Of a stretch of 64,000 nucleotides of DNA, positions 2,620 to 27,576 are shown piece after piece. The translations under genes and the position numbers were made by a program. Every line of letters begins with the position of its first letter. The first letter of the stretch is position 1. Under the pieces are notes generated by a model. It made no database searches, had not been told where the DNA came from, and saw nothing but the letters and a program-made list of their open reading frames with translations. The stretch lies in NCBI RefSeq assembly GCF_053078305.1, contig NZ_CP166879.1. The stretch is one strand, 5' to 3'.

Positions 2620-3657
2620 ATGGTCATCAACTGCGCCTTTATTGGCTTCGGCAAAAGCACCACCCGTTACCATCTGCCGTATGTACTTAACCGCAAGGAT
2701 AGCTGGCATGTCGCGCATATTTTTCGTCGCCATGCGAAGCCGGAAGAACAGGCTCCCATTTACTCTCATATCCATTTCACCAGCGATCTCGACGAAGTGC
2801 TAAACGATCCCGATGTTAAGCTGGTTGTGGTCTGCACCCACGCGGACAGCCATTTCGAGTACGCGAAACGCGCGCTGGAAGCCGGGAAAAATGTGCTGGT
2901 CGAAAAACCGTTCACTCCGACACTTGCGCAGGCGAAAGAGCTGTTTGCACTGGCGAAAAGCAAAGGGCTGACCGTCACGCCATATCAGAATCGTCGCTTT
3001 GATTCCTGCTTCCTGACAGCGAAAAAAGCGATTGAAAGCGGCAAGCTGGGAGAGATTGTCGAAGTGGAAAGCCATTTTGACTATTACCGCCCGGTCGCAG
3101 AAACCAAACCTGGGTTGCCGCAGGATGGCGCGTTCTATGGCCTTGGTGTGCATACGATGGACCAGATTATTTCTCTGTTCGGTCGCCCGGATCACGTCGC
3201 TTATGACATCCGCAGCCTGCGTAATAAAGCCAATCCTGACGATACTTTCGAAGCGCAACTGTTTTATGGCGATCTAAAAGCCATCGTCAAAACCAGCCAT
3301 CTGGTGAAAATCGATTATCCGAAATTTATCGTTCACGGTAAGAAAGGTTCGTTTATTAAATACGGTATCGACCAGCAGGAAACCAGCCTGAAGGCTAATA
3401 TTATGCCGGGCGAACCGGGATTCGCAGCGGATGATTCGGTCGGTGTGCTGGAGTATGTCAATGACGAGGGCGTGACGGTCAGAGAAGAGATGAAGCCGGA
3501 GATGGGCGATTACGGGCGCGTTTATGATGCGTTGTATCAAACCATCACCCACGGTGCGCCAAATTACGTCAAGGAATCTGAAGTTCTTACCAATCTGGAA
3601 ATCCTTGAACGCGGATTTGAGCAAGCCTCTCCCTCCACCGTGACTCTCGCGAAGTAA
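2620..3657 (+). CDS. yhhX: Gfo/Idh/MocA-family NAD(P)-dependent oxidoreductase
   Basis: 345-aa ORF with N-terminal Rossmann motif FIGFGKSTTRYHLP; synteny. Confidence 0.9.
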   Translation: MVINCAFIGFGKSTTRYHLPYVLNRKDSWHVAHIFRRHAKPEEQAPIYSHIHFTSDLDEVLNDPDVKLVVVCTHADSHFEYAKRALEAGKNVLVEKPFTPTLAQAKELFALAKSKGLTVTPYQNRRFDSCFLTAKKAIESGKLGEIVEVESHFDYYRPVAETKPGLPQDGAFYGLGVHTMDQIISLFGRPDHVAYDIRSLRNKANPDDTFEAQLFYGDLKAIVKTSHLVKIDYPKFIVHGKKGSFIKYGIDQQETSLKANIMPGEPGFAADDSVGVLEYVNDEGVTVREEMKPEMGDYGRVYDALYQTITHGAPNYVKESEVLTNLEILERGFEQASPSTVTLAK

Positions 3658-3779
3658 GTTTGATGGCCCCTCAAATAGTTCAATTTTTTTGAACAGAGGG
3701 GTCAATTTTCACCCTCTATCATCCCAGGCAGATCGGGTCCACACTAAGCCCATCGAAATCATTCAGGGGGCGAATACAA

Positions 3780-4475
3780 ATGATCTACTTACGCAAAGCA
3801 AATGAACGTGGTCATGCAAATCATGGCTGGCTGGACTCCTGGCATACTTTCTCTTTTGCCAACTATTACGATCCGAACTTTATGGGCTTCTCCGCGCTGC
3901 GCGTGATTAACGACGACGTGATTGAAGCAGGGCAGGGCTTCGGCACTCACCCGCATAAAGATATGGAAATTTTGACCTACGTGCTGGAAGGTACTGTTGA
4001 GCACCAGGACAGCATGGGCAATAAAGAGCAGGTTCCGGCGGGTGAGTTCCAGATTATGAGTGCGGGTACGGGTATTCGTCACTCAGAGTACAACCCAAGC
4101 AGCACCGAGCGTCTGCATCTGTATCAGATCTGGATCATGCCTGAAGAAAACGGTATTACGCCGCGTTATGAACAGCGTCGCTTCGATGCAGTGCAGGGCA
4201 AACAACTGGTGCTTTCGCCAGATGCGCGTGATGGTTCATTGAAAGTGCATCAGGATATGGAACTGTACCGCTGGGCGTTGCTGAAAGATGAGCAGTCGGT
4301 GCATCAGATTGCCGCTGAACGCCGCGTCTGGATCCAGGTGGTGAAAGGCAATGTCACCATTAACGGCGTGAAAGCCTCGATCAGCGATGGTCTGGCAATC
4401 TGGGATGAGCAGGCAATCTCCATCCATGCGGATAGCGACAGCGAAGTGTTACTGTTCGATCTGCCGCCGGTTTAA
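3780..4475 (+). CDS. yhhW: Pirin-like cupin (quercetin 2,3-dioxygenase)
   Basis: 231-aa ORF with cupin His motif GFGTHPHKDMEILTYVLEG; synteny upstream of gntR. Confidence 0.9.
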   Translation: MIYLRKANERGHANHGWLDSWHTFSFANYYDPNFMGFSALRVINDDVIEAGQGFGTHPHKDMEILTYVLEGTVEHQDSMGNKEQVPAGEFQIMSAGTGIRHSEYNPSSTERLHLYQIWIMPEENGITPRYEQRRFDAVQGKQLVLSPDARDGSLKVHQDMELYRWALLKDEQSVHQIAAERRVWIQVVKGNVTINGVKASISDGLAIWDEQAISIHADSDSEVLLFDLPPV

Positions 4476-4698: not shown

Positions 4699-5694
4699 AT
4701 GAAAAAGAAAAGACCCGTACTTCAGGATGTGGCTGACCGTGTAGGCGTGACCAAAATGACGGTCAGCCGTTTTTTACGCAACCCGGAGCAGGTTTCCGTC
4801 GCTCTACGCGGCAAGATTGCCGCGGCTCTTGATGAACTGGGCTATATTCCCAATCGTGCGCCCGATATCCTCTCTAACGCCACCAGCCGGGCGATTGGCG
4901 TCCTGTTACCTTCTCTCACCAACCAGGTTTTCGCGGAAGTATTACGCGGAATCGAAAGCGTCACCGACGCGCACGGTTATCAGACCATGCTGGCCCACTA
5001 CGGTTATAAACCGGAAATGGAGCAAGAACGTCTCGAATCAATGCTCTCATGGAATATCGACGGACTTATCCTCACCGAACGTACCCACACGCCGCGCACC
5101 TTAAAGATGATTGAAGTGGCGGGGATTCCCGTGGTGGAACTGATGGACAGCAAGTCGCCATGCCTCGATATTGCCGTCGGTTTTGATAACTTTGAAGCGG
5201 CACGCCAGATGACCGCCGCCATTATTGCTCGCGGGCATCGCCATATTGCCTATCTCGGCGCACGTCTCGACGAACGTACTATCATCAAACAGAAGGGATA
5301 CGAACAGGCGATGCGGGATGCAGGCCTGGTGCCGTATAGCGTGATGGTTGAGCAATCTTCTTCTTACTCTTCCGGTATTGAACTGATTCGCCAGGCGCGG
5401 CGGGAATATCCGCAGCTGGATGGCGTGTTCTGTACTAATGATGATCTGGCGGTCGGCGCGGCGTTTGAATGTCAGCGTCTGGGGTTAAAAGTTCCTGACG
5501 ATATGGCGATTGCCGGTTTCCACGGTCATGACATTGGTCAGGTGATGGAGCCACGACTTGCGAGCGTGCTGACGCCGCGTGAGCGGATGGGCAGTATTGG
5601 CGCTGAACGCCTTCTGGCGCGTATTCGTGGCGAATCTGTGACACCGAAAATGTTAGATTTAGGTTTCACCTTGTCACCGGGCGGATCTATTTAA
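4699..5694 (+). CDS. gntR: LacI-family transcriptional repressor of gluconate genes
   Basis: 331-aa ORF; N-terminal HTH (VTKMTVSRFL) and periplasmic-binding-fold C-terminus; directly upstream of gntK-gntU. Confidence 0.93.
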   Translation: MKKKRPVLQDVADRVGVTKMTVSRFLRNPEQVSVALRGKIAAALDELGYIPNRAPDILSNATSRAIGVLLPSLTNQVFAEVLRGIESVTDAHGYQTMLAHYGYKPEMEQERLESMLSWNIDGLILTERTHTPRTLKMIEVAGIPVVELMDSKSPCLDIAVGFDNFEAARQMTAAIIARGHRHIAYLGARLDERTIIKQKGYEQAMRDAGLVPYSVMVEQSSSYSSGIELIRQARREYPQLDGVFCTNDDLAVGAAFECQRLGLKVPDDMAIAGFHGHDIGQVMEPRLASVLTPRERMGSIGAERLLARIRGESVTPKMLDLGFTLSPGGSI

Positions 5695-20251: not shown

Positions 20252-22717
<2,466 letters not shown>

Positions 22718-22833: not shown

Positions 22834-24351
22834 ATGGACAGAATGATGCCAAATAGAAAATGGATTTTGACCTCGCTGATAATGACTTTTTTCGGCATCC
22901 CCATACTGGCGCAATTTTTGGCAGCGGTTGTTGCCATGCTGGGTGTCGGGCTTACCGGTATTATTGAAGTTTGTAATATCCTTATCACGCCAACAATTTA
23001 TCTTCTACTCAACGTCTTTATGCTGACGCTGGGGGCGATAATAATATTTTTCTCTGGTCGCGTGTGGGCCGGTGATAGCGCGCCAGAAAACAGAGAAATA
23101 GCCGTCTGGCGGCAATGCTTTTTTCTCTTACCCGCGCTATTAACCCTGGTTGGCTGGATAATCACGCTACATCTGGCAGATTATCAATTTCGCCAGATGG
23201 GAGCTGGTTGGTTGGCAAACCTTATGCTTCCCTGGTTGGGCGTTTTTTTAGTCTCATTAGTGGGTGGTGAGTACTGGTGGATGGTCATTATTCCCGTTGG
23301 GGTGCATATCAGTTTTTCGCTGGGATACGCCTGGCCGACCAGATATCCTTTATCCGGCACGTCCGGACTACGTTGCCGTAACTTACTCCTGTTTCTACTT
23401 CTCTTACTTGGTATTGTCGCCGGGTATCAGGCCCATTTATATAAGCAGCAAAATCCTGGTGTCGGTGTACGCGAAAATATTGATATCTGGGCCTGGCGAC
23501 CCGATAAACTCAATAATCGACTGACGCCGCTGCGTGGCAAACCGCAAATTCAGTTTAGGCAAAACTGGCCGCGAATCGATGGCGCCACGGCTGCGTACCC
23601 AATTTATGCTTCTGCATTTTATGCATTAAGTGTAATACCAGAGGATTTTCACGTTTGGGATTATCTGGAAAACTCTCGTACGCCAGAAGCATATAACAAA
23701 ATCGTTAAGGGCGATGCTGATATTATTTTCGTGGCGCAACCTTCCGGTGGGCAAAAAAAACGTGCAAAGGAATCTGGTGTCACTTTGCTGTACACCCCCT
23801 TTGCCCGTGAAGCATTCGTTTTCATCGTCAATGCGGATAATCCGGTTAATTCCCTGACTGAACAACAGGTGCGTGACATTTTCAGTGGTGCAATTACCAA
23901 CTGGCGTACTTTTGGCGGTAACGATCAGGAGATCCAGACCTGGCAGCGCCCGGAAGACTCTGGCAGCCAGACAGTGATGCAATCACAGGTCATGAAAAAT
24001 GTCCGCATGATCTCGCCGCAGGAAACGGAAGTGGCAAGCGTGATGGAGGGAATGATTAAAGTCGTTGCCGAATACCGTAATACAAACAACGCAATAGGCT
24101 ATACCTTCCGCTATTACGCGACGCAAATGAATGCTGATAAAAATATAAAATTGCTAGCGATTAACGGTATTACACCGACGGCGGAAAACATTCGCAACGG
24201 CAAATATGCGTACATCGTCGATGCATTTATGGTGACGAGAGAAAATAAAACGTCAGAAACACAAAAACTGGTCGAATGGTTTTTAACGCCGCAGGGGCAG
24301 AGTCTGGTAGAAGATGTGGGATATGTGCCGCTGTATAAAATCTTACCTTAA
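22834..24351 (+). CDS. Membrane-anchored protein: N-terminal polytopic domain (~6 predicted TM helices) plus C-terminal periplasmic solute-binding-protein-like domain (PBP superfamily, possibly phosphate/oxyanion type)
   Basis: 505-aa ORF. First ~200 aa hydrophobic; C-terminal part has SBP-like segments (DGATAAYPIYASAFY, FVAQPSGGQ, LLAINGITPTAENIRNGKYAY). K-12 carries only a pseudogene (yzgL) at this position as far as I recall. SBP subfamily is a guess. Confidence 0.6.
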   Translation: MDRMMPNRKWILTSLIMTFFGIPILAQFLAAVVAMLGVGLTGIIEVCNILITPTIYLLLNVFMLTLGAIIIFFSGRVWAGDSAPENREIAVWRQCFFLLPALLTLVGWIITLHLADYQFRQMGAGWLANLMLPWLGVFLVSLVGGEYWWMVIIPVGVHISFSLGYAWPTRYPLSGTSGLRCRNLLLFLLLLLGIVAGYQAHLYKQQNPGVGVRENIDIWAWRPDKLNNRLTPLRGKPQIQFRQNWPRIDGATAAYPIYASAFYALSVIPEDFHVWDYLENSRTPEAYNKIVKGDADIIFVAQPSGGQKKRAKESGVTLLYTPFAREAFVFIVNADNPVNSLTEQQVRDIFSGAITNWRTFGGNDQEIQTWQRPEDSGSQTVMQSQVMKNVRMISPQETEVASVMEGMIKVVAEYRNTNNAIGYTFRYYATQMNADKNIKLLAINGITPTAENIRNGKYAYIVDAFMVTRENKTSETQKLVEWFLTPQGQSLVEDVGYVPLYKILP

Positions 24352-24453
24352 GCAGGATAATCATATGGATACCGGTATTATTCGCCTGAACGCGGCCAAT
24401 GCTCGTTTTGTTTATCAACCGTTTACACGCAATCAGCGGAAGAGGGAGTAATT

Positions 24454-25230
24454 ATGCAATGCAGCCCCGCCATGCAGGCATTAATTGAGCAGATTTATCA
24501 TATTTTTCGTCGTTATCCGGTGCCGTCGAGATTTCATGTTTGTTGTCCTTACTGCTTTAGCGAAGAACAACAACAAGCCTTAAGAGGGGTTTCACTGCGT
24601 GCCATACCTTTCCCTTTATTACATGCCTGGGGAACAAGTATTGGTCCTACCCCGCAAAATGATGATGAGATTCGCTATTTATTACCCAGATTGTTTGAAT
24701 TTATTTCCCAAAGGCAATTTCCAGGCATTTATGAAGGCTGCTGTTTACAGAGAATAGCAGAGGCAGATAACCAGAACTGGCGAACGGACGAACTACAAAT
24801 AATTAGCGATTTCGCCTATTTATATATGCAGGATTGGGTGTCGGCTAAGGAGGTCGTAGAACTGGAAATAATATTAGAAATGTTTTATCGCGGTGGTATA
24901 AAGATTGAACCCTTACTTGACGCCATTATGTCCATTTCCGGTTACTGGCCGACGGCGTCTATGGCATGTTTGCTCTGGCGTAACAGTAAAGAATACGTCG
25001 AAAATAGCGATTTTGAGCAGAGTGATGATAATAAAACTATTACCACTCAAATTAATACCTGGGCTAGAAATAATCATCCTTTTCTGAAAGAAAGAGCGCG
25101 ACAAGCGATTGAGAACCCACTAAAACAGCCTGAACCAATGACAGAATATCAAGTCTGGGAAGACGACTGGATGATTGATGAGTGTTTATGCGCGATGTAT
25201 GACGCATCACCCGAACAATCAGGACAATAA
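24454..25230 (+). CDS. Hypothetical soluble protein, Cys-containing N-terminus (CCPYC); no family recognised
   Basis: 258-aa ORF, AT-richer than flanking core genes; its stop is 2 nt before the next ORF's start. Confidence 0.5.
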   Translation: MQCSPAMQALIEQIYHIFRRYPVPSRFHVCCPYCFSEEQQQALRGVSLRAIPFPLLHAWGTSIGPTPQNDDEIRYLLPRLFEFISQRQFPGIYEGCCLQRIAEADNQNWRTDELQIISDFAYLYMQDWVSAKEVVELEIILEMFYRGGIKIEPLLDAIMSISGYWPTASMACLLWRNSKEYVENSDFEQSDDNKTITTQINTWARNNHPFLKERARQAIENPLKQPEPMTEYQVWEDDWMIDECLCAMYDASPEQSGQ

Positions 25231-25232
25231 AG

Positions 25233-25823
25233 ATGAATAAAATCAGACTTTATATTTATCCGCTATATCTCGGCTTTGTTATTGTGCCGTTGTTGGTGTG
25301 GCCGACGGTGGTTGTTGTTGGTATCACACTGAGTTTTCTAATGGAGATGCTGTTCTCAAATTCGTTCATGCACAGGCGTATTTCCCTTCTGGAATTACAA
25401 CTTGGGTTATTGGCTGAATATACGCTTTTGTTCTGCGCCATATGTTGCGTTGGTTGGCAATTTGCTCGCATAACTCAATCTGAATTGAAAAGCAAACTGC
25501 ATTATTGGCTGGTATTTGTACCAGTTTATTTCTGGTTGCTCCTGTGGAATATCATTTTCTATGTCGCGCCAGCGAAAATTGCATTGCTGGAAAATATGCG
25601 CAGTTTCTTTCTGACCGTTGTCTGGCTCCCACTGAATTTTTCGCCATTTTGGTCTCAACCGTGGATTGACTTTGTCGGTCCAATAAGCGCACAGCTTGGT
25701 TTTGCGTTGGGATATTATTGCCAGTGGCGTAGCAAAAATAGAAGCCAGAGGAAGAAGTGGGGCGAGTGGGTAATGTGCTTAAGTTTTGTTACGTTGGGTA
25801 TGATGGCGTGGGCTTTGCGGTAA
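25233..25823 (+). CDS. Hypothetical integral membrane protein (4-5 predicted TM helices)
   Basis: 196-aa hydrophobic ORF tightly coupled to the preceding ORF; AT-rich. Confidence 0.5.
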   Translation: MNKIRLYIYPLYLGFVIVPLLVWPTVVVVGITLSFLMEMLFSNSFMHRRISLLELQLGLLAEYTLLFCAICCVGWQFARITQSELKSKLHYWLVFVPVYFWLLLWNIIFYVAPAKIALLENMRSFFLTVVWLPLNFSPFWSQPWIDFVGPISAQLGFALGYYCQWRSKNRSQRKKWGEWVMCLSFVTLGMMAWALR

Positions 25824-25876
25824 TTCCCTGAATCAAAAAGTAGGTCAGATTGTTGACAACGTGGCGCTTTGTTCAT

Positions 25877-25975
25877 GCCTGATGCGGCGTGAACGCCTTA
25901 TCAGGCCTACAAAATCATGCAAATTCAACATATTGCATAAACCACGTAGGCCTGATAAGCGTAGCGCATCAGGCA
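25877..25975. repeat. BIME: two inverted REP sequences (gcctgatgcggcgtgaacgccttatcaggcctac ... gtaggcctgataagcgtagcgcatcaggca)
   Basis: Canonical enterobacterial REP consensus (GATGCGGCG ... GGCCTAC) read directly; intergenic, downstream of glpD. Confidence 0.85.
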
Positions 25976-26037: not shown

Positions 26038-27543
26038 TTACGACGCCAGCGACAACTTCTGCTGCGTATATTCCACCAGCCACTGACTCACACGAGATTG
26101 TTGATCCGCATTCAGCCACATGCCTTGTTTTGTGCGACGCCACAGGGCATCGTCGGCGCGGCGGACCCATTCGTGATCCACCAGATATTTCAGCTCCGCT
26201 TCGTAGAACTCATGACCGAAATCCTCCCCAAGGTCGCTTACCGCTCCCGCATTGCCGAGCAGCAGCTCGCTGTTGCTGCCATAAGTACGCGCGTAATGAC
26301 GTGCCAGCGATTCGGTCAGGAACGGATAACGACGGCGCAGACGAGCTGCGTAATCGTCGCGGTCGCCTTCAATGGCACCACCCGGCAGCACGCTCTCTTT
26401 CGTCCATGCCGGGCCAATGCCCTGATAATACGGCGTCAGTTTTTCCAGCGCATGTTCCGCCAGTTTGCGGTAGGTGGTCAACTTACCGCCGAATACCGAC
26501 AGCAGCGGTGCTTTGCCGTTTTCATCATGGATATCAAGGGTGTAATCACGGGTAATAGCCTGCGGCGAGTCGGACTCATCATCACACAGCGGACGCACAC
26601 CGGAGTAGGTCCAGACGATATCGTCACGGCTTAACTGCTTTTTAAAGTGCGTGTTATACACTTTCAGCAGGTAATTGATTTCACTCTCTTCAATCTTCAC
26701 TGCTTTCGGATCACCTTTGTATTCCACATCGGTGGTGCCGATGATGGAAAACTCGTCCATCCACGGGATCACGAACACAATGCGTTTATCTTCGTTTTGC
26801 AGAATGTAGGCCTGCTTTTGGGTATGCACGCGCGGCACCACAATATGGCTACCTTTGATCAGGCGAATGCCATAAGGCGAAGGCAGATGCATCCCGTCGT
26901 CGAAGAACTGTTTCACCCACGGGCCGGTGGCGTTAACCAGGCCGCGCGCTTGCCAGCTATATTTTTTGCCGGTATCGATATCTTCCGCTTCCACAATCCA
27001 CAGGCCGTTTTCGCGACGAGCAGAAGTAGCACGAGTACGAGTAAGCACTTCGCCGCCTTTACGCACCACCATCTGGGCGTTGGCGAGTACCAGACGGGCG
27101 TCGTCTACCCAACAGTCAGAATATTCGAATCCGCGCTTAATTTCCGGTTTTAACACTGAGTTTGCGCCAAAACGCAAACCAGTTGATCCCGGCAGGCTGG
27201 TGCGTTTACCCAGATGATCGTACATAAACAGACCAATGCGAATCATCCACGCCGGGCGCAGATGCGGACGATGTGGCAGGCGAAAACGCATCGGGAAGGC
27301 GATATGCGGGGCCATTTTCAGCAGCACTTCACGTTCAGCCAGCGCCTCGCTGACCAGGCGGAATTCATAGTGCTCAAGGTAGCGCAGGCCACCGTGGATG
27401 AGTTTTGAACTGGCGGAAGAGGTCGCGCAAGCGAGATCCTGCGCCTCCAGCATCAGCACGGATAAACCGCGTCCAGCGGCGTCTGCCGCGATACCAGCAC
27501 CATTGATGCCGCCACCTATCACAATCAGATCTTTGGTTTCCAT
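26038..27543 (-). CDS. glpD: Aerobic glycerol-3-phosphate dehydrogenase
   Basis: Start placed at METKDLIVIGGGINGAGIAADAAGRGL (501 aa, FAD-binding GxGxxG). Confidence 0.95.
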   Translation of the reverse strand: METKDLIVIGGGINGAGIAADAAGRGLSVLMLEAQDLACATSSASSKLIHGGLRYLEHYEFRLVSEALAEREVLLKMAPHIAFPMRFRLPHRPHLRPAWMIRIGLFMYDHLGKRTSLPGSTGLRFGANSVLKPEIKRGFEYSDCWVDDARLVLANAQMVVRKGGEVLTRTRATSARRENGLWIVEAEDIDTGKKYSWQARGLVNATGPWVKQFFDDGMHLPSPYGIRLIKGSHIVVPRVHTQKQAYILQNEDKRIVFVIPWMDEFSIIGTTDVEYKGDPKAVKIEESEINYLLKVYNTHFKKQLSRDDIVWTYSGVRPLCDDESDSPQAITRDYTLDIHDENGKAPLLSVFGGKLTTYRKLAEHALEKLTPYYQGIGPAWTKESVLPGGAIEGDRDDYAARLRRRYPFLTESLARHYARTYGSNSELLLGNAGAVSDLGEDFGHEFYEAELKYLVDHEWVRRADDALWRRTKQGMWLNADQQSRVSQWLVEYTQQKLSLAS

Positions 27544-27576
27544 GCTGCCCTCATTCACTTTCGTTAAAGCTCATAA

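Follow-up and report, generated by a model that had tools for sequence, protein, structure and literature searches.

PstS proteins, the immunity proteins of CDI, Rhs, and T6SS systems, and HEAT-like/ARM alpha-solenoids such as the AlkD-type DNA glycosylases are the described systems closest to two genes, ORF258 and ORF196, that lie between glgP and glpD in a stretch of 64,000 nucleotides (the window; contig NZ_CP166879.1 of assembly GCF_053078305.1). The likeness to the PstS family lies in the PstS-like domain of a 505-aa protein encoded at the same locus and of a 330-aa lipoprotein of O157-type strains, and in ORF196, which is homologous to the part that anchors the 505-aa protein in the membrane. 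However, the locus of the window has no adjoining pstCAB-type permease or ATPase genes, the 505-aa protein joins its binding domain, which scores under the family cut-off, to a multi-pass membrane domain that carries no annotation, ORF196 itself lacks a binding domain, and ORF258 bears no relation to the family. ORF258 resembles the immunity proteins in being small, non-secreted, and poor in invariant polar residues, as well as in its sporadic distribution, its tandem diverged paralogs, and its presence in strain-variable arrays, but at the sampled loci it has no upstream toxin, toxin-tip remnant, or Imm-family match. With the alpha-solenoids it shares a length of ~250 aa and an all-helical structure, whereas the AlkD-like HEAT-like-repeat protein 1t06 reaches a TM-score of ~0.22–0.24 and the PDB sequences give no match; the CxxCC cluster is not known to be a feature of the HEAT-like, ARM, or AlkD-type families. 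Unlike toxin–antitoxin and abortive infection (Abi) pairs, ORF258 and ORF196 are not an obligate unit, each being found without the other.

The glgP–glpD site has been reported as variable in E. coli, with the auf operon in ExPEC, and passages on it use the names auf fimbrial island, “GR 24,” and “hotspot A” (PMC12928451, PMC13185298). The passages devoted to the site in these two papers mention neither the genes called A, B (ORF258), and T (ORF196) in the following nor the PstS-like gene, and the literature on yzgL, glgP/glpD, auf, and the CFT073 locus tags returned nothing about the A-B-T or 505-aa genes. In the window, the auf operon is absent from the gap, and the region reads as follows.

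20270..22717, + strand: glgP, glycogen phosphorylase (an ORF named glgP in matching E. coli records); conserved left flank
22834..24351, + strand: 505-aa gene, PstS-like, first of the low-GC operon (PGAP start 22843)
24365..24451, + strand: what remains of A after its deletion, a mini-ORF of 28 codons that starts with ATG, MDTGIIRLNAANARFVYQPFTRNQRKRE
24454..25230, + strand: ORF258 (B), 258 aa, cytoplasmic all-alpha protein
25233..25823, + strand: ORF196 (T), 196 aa, multi-pass inner-membrane protein
25876..25975, no strand: REP pair (BIME), two inverted REPs in the T–glpD intergenic region
26038..27558, − strand: glpD, glycerol-3-phosphate dehydrogenase (an ORF named glpD in matching E. coli records); conserved right flank

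The first-pass annotation described a 258-aa soluble and a 196-aa membrane protein encoded 2 nt apart, and the coordinates, the junction (TAA-AG-ATG), and the hydrophobic segments (zero in ORF258, at least four in ORF196) all agree with this. The lower GC that it noted is also found: GC/GC3 is 0.421/0.386 in ORF258 and 0.433/0.497 in ORF196, against 0.509/0.608 in glgP and 0.549/0.604 in glpD. Because the 505-aa gene is similarly low (0.468/0.488), the compositional island spans ~3 kb, not 1.4 kb. The 505-aa gene and the remnant of A had been missed in the annotation. All the genes of the operon are on the same strand, with very short gaps between them.

The 505-aa protein consists of an N-terminal multi-pass membrane domain (residues ~1–205) and a fused PstS-like periplasmic phosphate-binding domain (~224–505). 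The latter matches TIGR02136 (E = 2.5e-34; 118.8 bits, under the curated cut-off of 206.6 bits) and the PstS chains of the PDB (E = 3e-18). The PstS-like domains of the locus bear the GAT..P.Y and R...SGS motifs typical of phosphate binders, as judged by the residue roles in E. coli PstS. On these matches the PstS-like domain of the 505-aa protein is a genuine one; neither ORF258 nor ORF196 has a PBP_like_2/PstS domain. In hhalign, ORF196 aligns end to end with the membrane part of the 505-aa protein at 98.3% probability (E = 1.4e-13; a profile comparison that shared composition can inflate among membrane proteins), and the relationship is recovered by BLASTP between orthologs (E = 1.5e-5 and 2.4e-6). 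Both proteins have a basic loop just before the last membrane helix, and ORF196 ends at the point where the PstS domain begins in the 505-aa protein. Judged by these comparisons, ORF196, of which identical copies are present in E. coli genomes, is a free-standing paralog of that membrane domain. An envelope function, one of the roles first suggested for the pair, is plausible for ORF196.

Remote homology and structure prediction had been proposed as a check; the former placed ORF196 in this way, and for ORF258 neither gave a PDB match. The AF2 model of ORF258 (pLDDT 90.6, 13 helices) has no fold match in the PDB by Foldseek (best E 0.2, TM ~0.2–0.3), and its profile finds zero PDB sequences. 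Neither ORF258 nor ORF196 matches Pfam, NCBIfam, PADLOC, or PHROGs, in line with the earlier statement that neither could be assigned to a known family. ORF258 is a soluble helical cytoplasmic protein of a large unnamed superfamily of stand-alone genes, which counts 1,564 representative clusters (50% identity) at E ≤ 1e-3 and of which 36 members scanned against Pfam gave nothing. The superfamily is sporadic but very widely spread, across many phyla; its hosts include Neisseria, Moraxella, Eikenella, Capnocytophaga, Streptococcus sanguinis, and actinomycetes. Some AFDB neighbors of ORF258 carry the names “DNA alkylation repair protein” or “HEAT repeat-containing.” A conserved CxxCC cluster marks the superfamily; ORF258 has an N-terminal Cys cluster (C30, C31, and C34; conservation 96/76/97% in 119 representatives), and its C-terminal CxC (C244, C246) is clade-specific. 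The conserved positions are mostly hydrophobic, together with C30/C33/C34, and few are charged (E72, R79, E113); because these few charged residues and the Cys cluster are kept, an enzymatic or redox role for ORF258 may stand.

Outside the E. coli locus, the relatives of ORF258 are solo genes (45 genomic loci), and when ORFs were called and neighbors clustered at these loci no conserved neighbor was found. A Pfam scan of 120 neighboring proteins revealed no recurrent family and no enrichment in toxin or Imm domains, their absence referring to the 20 most frequent families, and the plasmid and metagenome contexts likewise contain no conserved partner and no such enrichment. On the proposed check of gene neighborhoods, some version of the glgP–glpD locus recurs in most complete E. 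coli genomes, and the relatives of ORF258 elsewhere have no conserved partner. Toxin genes and toxin-tip remnants were also absent beside the superfamily members in the window and at ~55 loci, and the Pfam Imm families (Imm*, SUKH, etc.) match neither ORF258 nor the 36 members. Models of toxins, antitoxins, and Abi proteins match neither ORF258 nor ORF196, nor do the defense models of PADLOC, and the glgP–glpD site is missing from the E. coli defense-hotspot catalog of PMC10121019; the suggestion of a toxin/immunity or abortive infection function is not borne out by these searches. A phage origin of ORF258 was rejected, since relatives are lacking in PHROGs, phage records, and viral contigs. 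In conclusion, no link of ORF258 or ORF196 to toxins, defense systems, or phages was found.

The usual upstream partner of ORF258 is A, a 236-aa gene that is missing from the window. Positions 24378–24546 align with 4803–4971 of the related locus L002 and positions 24250–24361 with 4050–4161 of the same locus, and therefore ~641 bp of A have been lost. The 102-nt gap upstream of ORF258 is what is left of A, and no terminator-like or promoter-like site was found in it (24352–24453). The remnant mini-ORF stops 2 nt before ORF258 and holds its GGGAG Shine-Dalgarno sequence; the mini-ORF has remained open, and the 2-nt coupling has been kept, in two diverged lineages with the deletion. The same A-deleted junction is present in 679 of the 5,426 complete E. 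coli genomes, with B intact at the sampled loci. Two identities were considered for A and rejected. PGAP labels A “YbbD family,” and NF007301 covers only ~45 N-terminal residues at a score far under cut-off. When A, B, and T were compared by tblastn with the rhsD-ybbC-ylbH-ybbD region of K-12, nothing was found; the link to the Rhs orphan immunity slot was therefore dropped. A deaminase toxin was suggested by a weak fold resemblance, but the catalytic motif is missing: the zinc-binding H/C-x-E and PCxxC motifs are not present, and there is no invariant H, C, or E among nine A sequences.

Among the variants of the locus, the operon is framed on the 5′ side by the 505-aa PstS-like protein with its membrane anchor and on the 3′ side by T, and interchangeable cassettes lie between the two. 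The cassettes are a PstS-like lipoprotein, an A+B pair, B alone after deletion of A (the window), A + helicase + A + B, or PstS + two small secreted proteins + A + B′ + B. Tandem diverged paralogs (B′+B) are found at two loci (L073 and L012). The helicase (at L004) is an SF1 helicase-DUF2726 protein that matches the Mokosh/Hhe/ProA defense models; its E. coli relatives are in an unrelated island with no adjoining A-like gene, which shows that A does not accompany helicases in general. B2-type strains keep A-B-T but have the auf fimbrial operon in place of the 505-aa gene, which means that T does not strictly depend on the 505-aa protein. In O157/REL606-type strains, T occurs without ORF258, whose place is taken by the PstS-like lipoprotein (330 aa, with a clear PstS-like domain in O157-type strains), and relatives of ORF258 occur without ORF196 in L007 and L012. 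Because T is found without B, B without T, and the usual partner of B is A, the idea of an autonomous two-component unit is not supported. The coupling sequence upstream of T, which codes for ...ASPExSGQ, is found in the PstS lipoprotein gene as well, and hence the coupling is a property of T and not of the B-T pair. Genes for pstCAB-like ABC permeases or ATPases were absent between glgP and glpD in every variant examined, and no kinase or regulator genes were seen at the locus.

Matches to part of the A-B-T block are found in 4,154 of the 5,426 complete E. coli genomes (about three quarters), at about one place per genome (4,168 places), and the block is present at ≥80% coverage in 2,280. DNA of the 505-aa membrane domain occurs in 3,353 genomes and the PstS-like lipoprotein gene in 886, and at the megablast level only 34 genomes match the arrangement of the window with its ORF258 allele at ≥80%. 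K-12 has lost the locus except for yzgL, a 5′ remnant of the 505-aa gene, and pseudogenes of the 505-aa gene, B, and T are found in other strains; strains can thus do without the locus, and some lineages may be in the course of losing it.

The 505-aa gene, ORF258, and ORF196 are under purifying selection, with dN/dS between alleles of 0.10–0.41 across the three genes (0.12–0.27 for ORF258, 0.23–0.41 for ORF196). ORF258 and ORF196 are real genes, and their conservation, which had been made a point on which the annotation would stand or fall, is seen in these ratios (0.12–0.41). Synonymous divergence between the allele classes of ORF258 (dS 1.6–2.3) greatly exceeds that of the adjoining glgP (0.04–0.17). 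The alleles are thus ancient, far older than the flanking core genes. The pair, which lies in strain-variable DNA, had been suggested to be horizontally acquired; an old multi-allelic locus is the better description given the dS values.

The reading that we favor, with a probability of about one half, is that the glgP–glpD gap is filled by a multi-allelic accessory operon, of a type present in Escherichia and a few related enterobacteria, in which ORF258 and ORF196 come last. ORF196 would be an inner-membrane protein that serves the periplasmic PstS-like proteins of the locus as anchor or partner subunit. ORF258 would act alone, as a Cys- or metal-stabilized and probably noncatalytic binding protein, with either a protective, inhibitor-like role or that of an adaptor. 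Cotranslation of the two would result from the architecture of the operon and not from a toxin–antidote relationship. A membrane anchor subunit and a noncatalytic binding protein are our best guess for the two roles, as suggested by homology, topology, and conservation pattern. The locus could instead be an orphan immunity array, in which ORF258 (and elsewhere A, B′, and the small secreted proteins) protects against toxins delivered by competitors, without cognate toxin genes. In its favor are the sporadic and very wide distribution of the superfamily, the tandem B′+B paralogs, the grouping of cytoplasmic, periplasmic, and lipoprotein ORFs in one unidirectional array, the ancient allele classes under purifying selection, the small number of invariant polar residues, and the retention of ORF258 after the loss of A in 679 genomes. 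We consider it unlikely, however, because no toxin or toxin-tip remnant adjoins the members (~55 loci), toxin and Imm families are absent from the top 20 neighbor Pfam families, ORF258 has no Imm match, and A-B-T DNA occupies about one place per E. coli genome (4,168 in 4,154). A conflict function in a broader sense, in which A-B-T (B-T here) is an unrecognized anti-phage or anti-competitor module kept by balancing selection, is a tentative idea of low probability, for which the evidence is the ancient alleles, the cassette exchange, the tandem paralogs, and the one locus with a defense-like helicase. If it were true, ORF258 would be the founding member of a new helical superfamily that has a Cys cluster and a fold absent from the PDB, and ORF196 would be the membrane component beside it.

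Small membrane proteins are common as Abi effectors, and this frequency, together with the 2-nt coupling, the low GC, the strain variability, and the defense-model-matching SF1 helicase-DUF2726 in the same slot of one related locus, would suit an autonomous toxin/immunity or Abi pair, with a membrane effector and a soluble antidote or sensor. Yet T is found without B beside the PstS-like lipoprotein (886 genomes) and B also without T, T is paralogous to a domain that anchors PstS, the coupling sequence belongs to T and is common to the PstS lipoprotein gene, PADLOC matches neither protein, B has no phage or viral-contig relatives, and the site is absent from the hotspots of PMC10121019, all of which makes such a pair very improbable. 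We give equally little credit to a phosphate-related system, in which a membrane complex of the 505-aa protein and T would bind, on its periplasmic side, phosphate or a phosphorylated ligand, with ORF258 and A as its regulator or output in the cytoplasm. In favor are the genuine PstS-like domains with both motifs, the single strand and very short gaps of the genes, and the homology of T to the 505-aa anchor; but the locus lacks ABC permease/ATPase, kinase, and regulator genes, A-B-T is kept where auf replaces the 505-aa gene, and the relatives of ORF258 are elsewhere solo, without phosphate-related neighbors. It is also hard to see the remaining genes as functionless passengers heading for deletion after the loss of A. 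Such decay has happened in K-12, which keeps only the yzgL fragment, and the deletion of A in the window and the pseudogenized 505-aa gene, B, or T of other strains go in the same direction; however, dN/dS of 0.12–0.41 reveals no visible relaxation, 679 genomes have the A-deleted form, with B intact at the sampled loci, and diverged lineages have retained both the leader ORF and the 2-nt coupling.

At present, this is a hypothetical gene pair in a known variable site, and not a new mechanism. The proteins of the locus lack names, Pfam families, and structures, with the PstS-like domain as the sole exception. As ORF258 represents ~1,560 clusters and has a confident fold with no solved counterpart, a single biochemical result would annotate many proteins. 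The locus is also a clean natural case of cassette exchange between fixed flanks with alleles older than the core genome, which makes it useful for studies of balancing selection in E. coli.

The REP cluster reported to follow the pair is indeed present, as an inverted pair at 25876–25975 made of GCCTGATGCGGCGTGAACGCCTTATCAGGCCTAC and its inverted partner (inverted repeats I1–I3). The two elements are imperfect palindromes of ~35 nt in an intergenic region, and they match the REP consensus, which places them in the REP/BIME class. Between them, at 25911–25953, there is a borderline match to Rfam ES036 (39.3 bits, for a gathering score of 37.6).

The glgP–glpD gap is a multi-allelic cassette site, and ORF258 (gene B) and ORF196 (gene T) are real, conserved genes of an ordinary kind, i.e., uncharacterised accessory genes at a known variable chromosomal site. 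The window is a stretch of Escherichia coli-like chromosome in which the site is flanked by glgP and by glpD-glpE-glpG, and E. coli assemblies contain the exact ORF196 protein and a 99%-identical ORF258. The first-pass annotation described the pair correctly: the two ORFs lie on the + strand (24454-25230 and 25233-25823), separated by 2 nt (junction TAA-AG-ATG); ORF258 has no hydrophobic segment and ORF196 has several; GC/GC3 is low (0.421/0.386 for ORF258 and 0.433/0.497 for ORF196, versus ~0.51-0.55/0.60-0.63 for glgP, glpD, glpE, and glpG); two inverted REP elements follow (25876-25975); and neither protein has a match in Pfam, NCBIfam, PADLOC, or PHROGs. What is new is how far the unit really extends, that a partner gene has been lost, that the membrane protein has a paralog, and how large the ORF258 family is. 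Two elements had not been connected to the pair. The upstream 505-aa gene (22834-24351), which fuses an N-terminal multi-pass membrane domain to a PstS-like periplasmic domain, is also of low GC (0.468/0.488), and the 102-nt "spacer" 5′ of ORF258 is the remnant of a deleted gene. In the 505-aa gene, the ATG at 22834 opens the longest ORF; orthologues are annotated in RefSeq from three codons further on (502 aa; 22843 in the window).

Comparing the window with complete E. coli genomes (5,426) and with metagenomic enterobacterial contigs gave the following arrangements.

Gene arrangements between glgP and glpD (505, the 505-aa gene; A, 236-aa usual upstream partner of B; L numbers, comparison loci)
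505 - A (236 aa) - B (255 aa, ORF258 homolog) - T (201 aa, ORF196 homolog): example L002
505 - A remnant - B - T: window, L001, L070, L071
505 - PstS-like lipoprotein (330 aa) - T: O157:H7, REL606
auf fimbrial operon - A - B - T, 505-aa gene absent: L072
505 - PstS333 - truncated PstS fragment - small lipoprotein - two small secreted proteins - A - B′ (262) - B (258) - T: L073
yzgL alone (505-aa gene, first ~225 nt): K-12
506 - A - SF1 helicase/DUF2726 - A - B - T (169) - small secreted repeat protein: L004 (non-E. coli)
176 - 499 - A - B, without T: L007 (non-E. coli)

The auf arrangement agrees with how this site has been described in ExPEC (PMC12928451). Among the 5,426 complete genomes, the A-B-T block is present at ≥80% coverage in 2,280 and in any portion in 4,154, the DNA of the 505-aa membrane domain in 3,353, and the PstS-like lipoprotein gene in 886. 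The A-deleted junction of the window occurs in 679, and its arrangement with its own ORF258 allele (≥80%, at the megablast level) in 34. The yzgL gene of K-12 matches only a fragment of the membrane domain (window 22834-23060) and none of the binding domain, and is thus the 5′ stump of a deletion that took the rest of the locus. The locus gains cassettes besides swapping them, as in L073. Upstream of A-B′-B-T, this expanded allele (E. coli GF4-3, 2812-4281) carries a third PstS-like lipoprotein, truncated to a 92-aa fragment, along with an ORF for a 63-aa lipoprotein and two small proteins with signal peptides (154 and ~150 aa) that match no family. In the same slot of the related enterobacterial contig L004 (4564-7263), an 899-aa SF1 helicase with a C-terminal DUF2726 lies between two diverged copies of A; the defence models that this helicase matches are Mokosh (MkoA/MkoC), Hhe, and ProA, and its E. 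coli relatives are found in an unrelated island (L074).

The gene lost from the window is A. Positions 24250-24361 align with L002 4050-4161 and positions 24378-24546 with L002 4803-4971, so that ~641 bp, nearly the whole of A, are absent. What is left includes a short reading frame:

24365-24451, + strand: mini-ORF of 28 codons with an ATG start, containing the last 24 codons of the deleted A and ending 2 nt before ORF258

The Shine-Dalgarno sequence of ORF258 lies inside this mini-ORF, which is open in two A-deleted lineages with visibly diverged spacer DNA, and in which several A-invariant residues are altered. It may therefore have been kept for translational coupling rather than for a peptide function. 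No terminator-like or promoter-like site was found in the gap 5′ of ORF258 (24352-24453), which is consistent with a possible shared transcript that starts upstream of the 505-aa gene. PGAP names A "YbbD family protein" (L015 3166-3876 and other E. coli records), a name that looks unreliable: no similarity was found between A and the ybbD pseudogene region of K-12, and in NCBIfam only ~45 residues are matched, far below the cut-off.

The ORF196 family is homologous to the N-terminal ~215 residues of the 505-aa family proteins (profile-profile probability 98.3%, E = 1.4e-13, collinear over the full length); between T and 505-type orthologues of L004, plain BLASTP gives 1.5e-5 and 2.4e-6. Motifs common to both include FFGVPILA near the N-terminus and GP.SAQ.GFALGY, which precedes a basic loop and then the final membrane helix; directly after this helix, ORF196 ends and the PstS-like domain of the 505-aa protein begins. 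This domain is genuine, judging from its matches to TIGR02136 (E = 2.5e-34, under the curated cut-off) and to solved PstS proteins (E ~ 1e-18); for the membrane domain, Pfam gave no match. Hence, ORF196 is a stand-alone version of a membrane anchor to which, elsewhere, a periplasmic phosphate-binding domain is attached. In O157-type strains, a separate PstS-like lipoprotein gene directly precedes T. ORF196 would serve, in the inner membrane, as anchor or partner subunit of the periplasmic PstS-like proteins of the locus.

The O157-type lipoprotein (…YEASPESSGQ) and ORF258 (…YDASPEQSGQ), otherwise unrelated, have similar last ten codons (Y[DE]ASPExSGQ; L003 5140-5169 versus window 25198-25230). 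The tight junction is therefore part of the conserved upstream flank of T, not a sign of a specific B-T relationship, and the shared ~10 codons mark where, immediately 5′ of T, recombination bounds the cassette on its right-hand side. The coupling of ORF258 and ORF196 would reflect operon architecture.

For ORF258, AlphaFold2 (20-sequence alignment) gives a confident all-helical model (13 helices, pLDDT 90.6, pTM 0.89), without significant Foldseek hits in PDB (best E = 0.2, ARM/HEAT-type noise); the family profile matches no PDB sequence. AFDB50 contains 180 matches at E ≤ 1e-3, nearly all "uncharacterized", from Proteobacteria, Bacteroidota, Deinococcota, Actinomycetota, and Firmicutes, and an exhaustive profile search of 1.84 billion representatives gave 1,564 clusters at E ≤ 1e-3, of which 420 reach E ≤ 1e-10; nearly all are 230-280 aa long. 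None of 36 diverse members has a Pfam match. ORF258 thus represents a large family without a Pfam, NCBIfam, PHROG, or PADLOC model or a solved structure. The signature among 119 representatives comprises Y15, F18, E113, W203, a Cys cluster (C30 96%, C33 76%, C34 97%), and the motif E-x-K-[YH]-F-L-P-R (P78 100%, R79 93%); the enterobacterial clade adds a C-terminal C-x-C. The conserved positions are mostly hydrophobic, which weakly hints at a metal or disulfide site with a structural function and at binding, not catalysis, as the role; the few conserved charged residues make an enzyme possible. In 45 loci from species-representative genomes, relatives of ORF258 are single-copy in all but L029 (a second, apparently split copy), and no neighbour family is common to them beyond closely related genomes; a Pfam scan of 120 immediate neighbours found scattered unrelated families with at most 2-3 members each. 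In metagenomic and plasmid contexts, the gene stands alone between unrelated genes or lies within arrays of small accessory genes. Tandem diverged paralogs occur in L012 and L073, and no relatives were found in phage records or viral contigs. ORF258-type proteins thus seem to work without a fixed partner, linkage to A and T being confined to the Escherichia-clade subfamily. We infer that ORF258 acts autonomously as a binding protein, probably a non-catalytic one.

The 505-aa gene, ORF258, and ORF196 are protein-coding genes under constraint, with dN/dS (Nei-Gojobori) of 0.10-0.22, 0.12-0.27, and 0.23-0.41, respectively. By the same method, dS between allele classes is saturated for ORF258 (1.6-2.3) and ~0.8 for ORF196, far above that of the adjacent glgP end (0.04-0.17), indicating that the alleles greatly predate the core genome around them. 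Either a polymorphism balanced over the long term or repeated import would fit this pattern, in both cases combined with recombination that exchanges cassettes through the conserved flanks (the 505-aa gene end, the conserved ~30 codons that open B, and the upstream region of T). A new conflict system under balancing selection seems unlikely. The toxin/immunity or abortive infection pair proposed initially is disfavoured, as each gene also occurs naturally without the other, ORF196 is clearly paralogous to a protein that is not a toxin, and neither a defence nor a toxin signature is present. Of the specific alternatives, the most attractive would make ORF258 an orphan immunity protein, but none of the roughly 55 loci examined links it to a toxin. 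The locus decays sporadically. In individual strains of E. coli, the 505-aa gene, B, or T carries internal stops or frameshifts (L070 965-2473 and 3346-3951; L072 12078-12853; L073 6589-7188), and such pseudogenes, together with the complete loss in K-12, indicate that the locus is dispensable.

Two RNA matches were observed in the window. A borderline match to the Rfam sRNA ES036 (CssrF; 25911-25953, + strand; 39.3 bits versus a gathering score of 37.6, E = 2e-4) sits between the two REP elements 3′ of ORF196 and may simply be REP-associated sequence. The RyhB sRNA gene (2437-2501, + strand) is clear (Rfam, 83 bits) and expected in this part of the E. coli chromosome.
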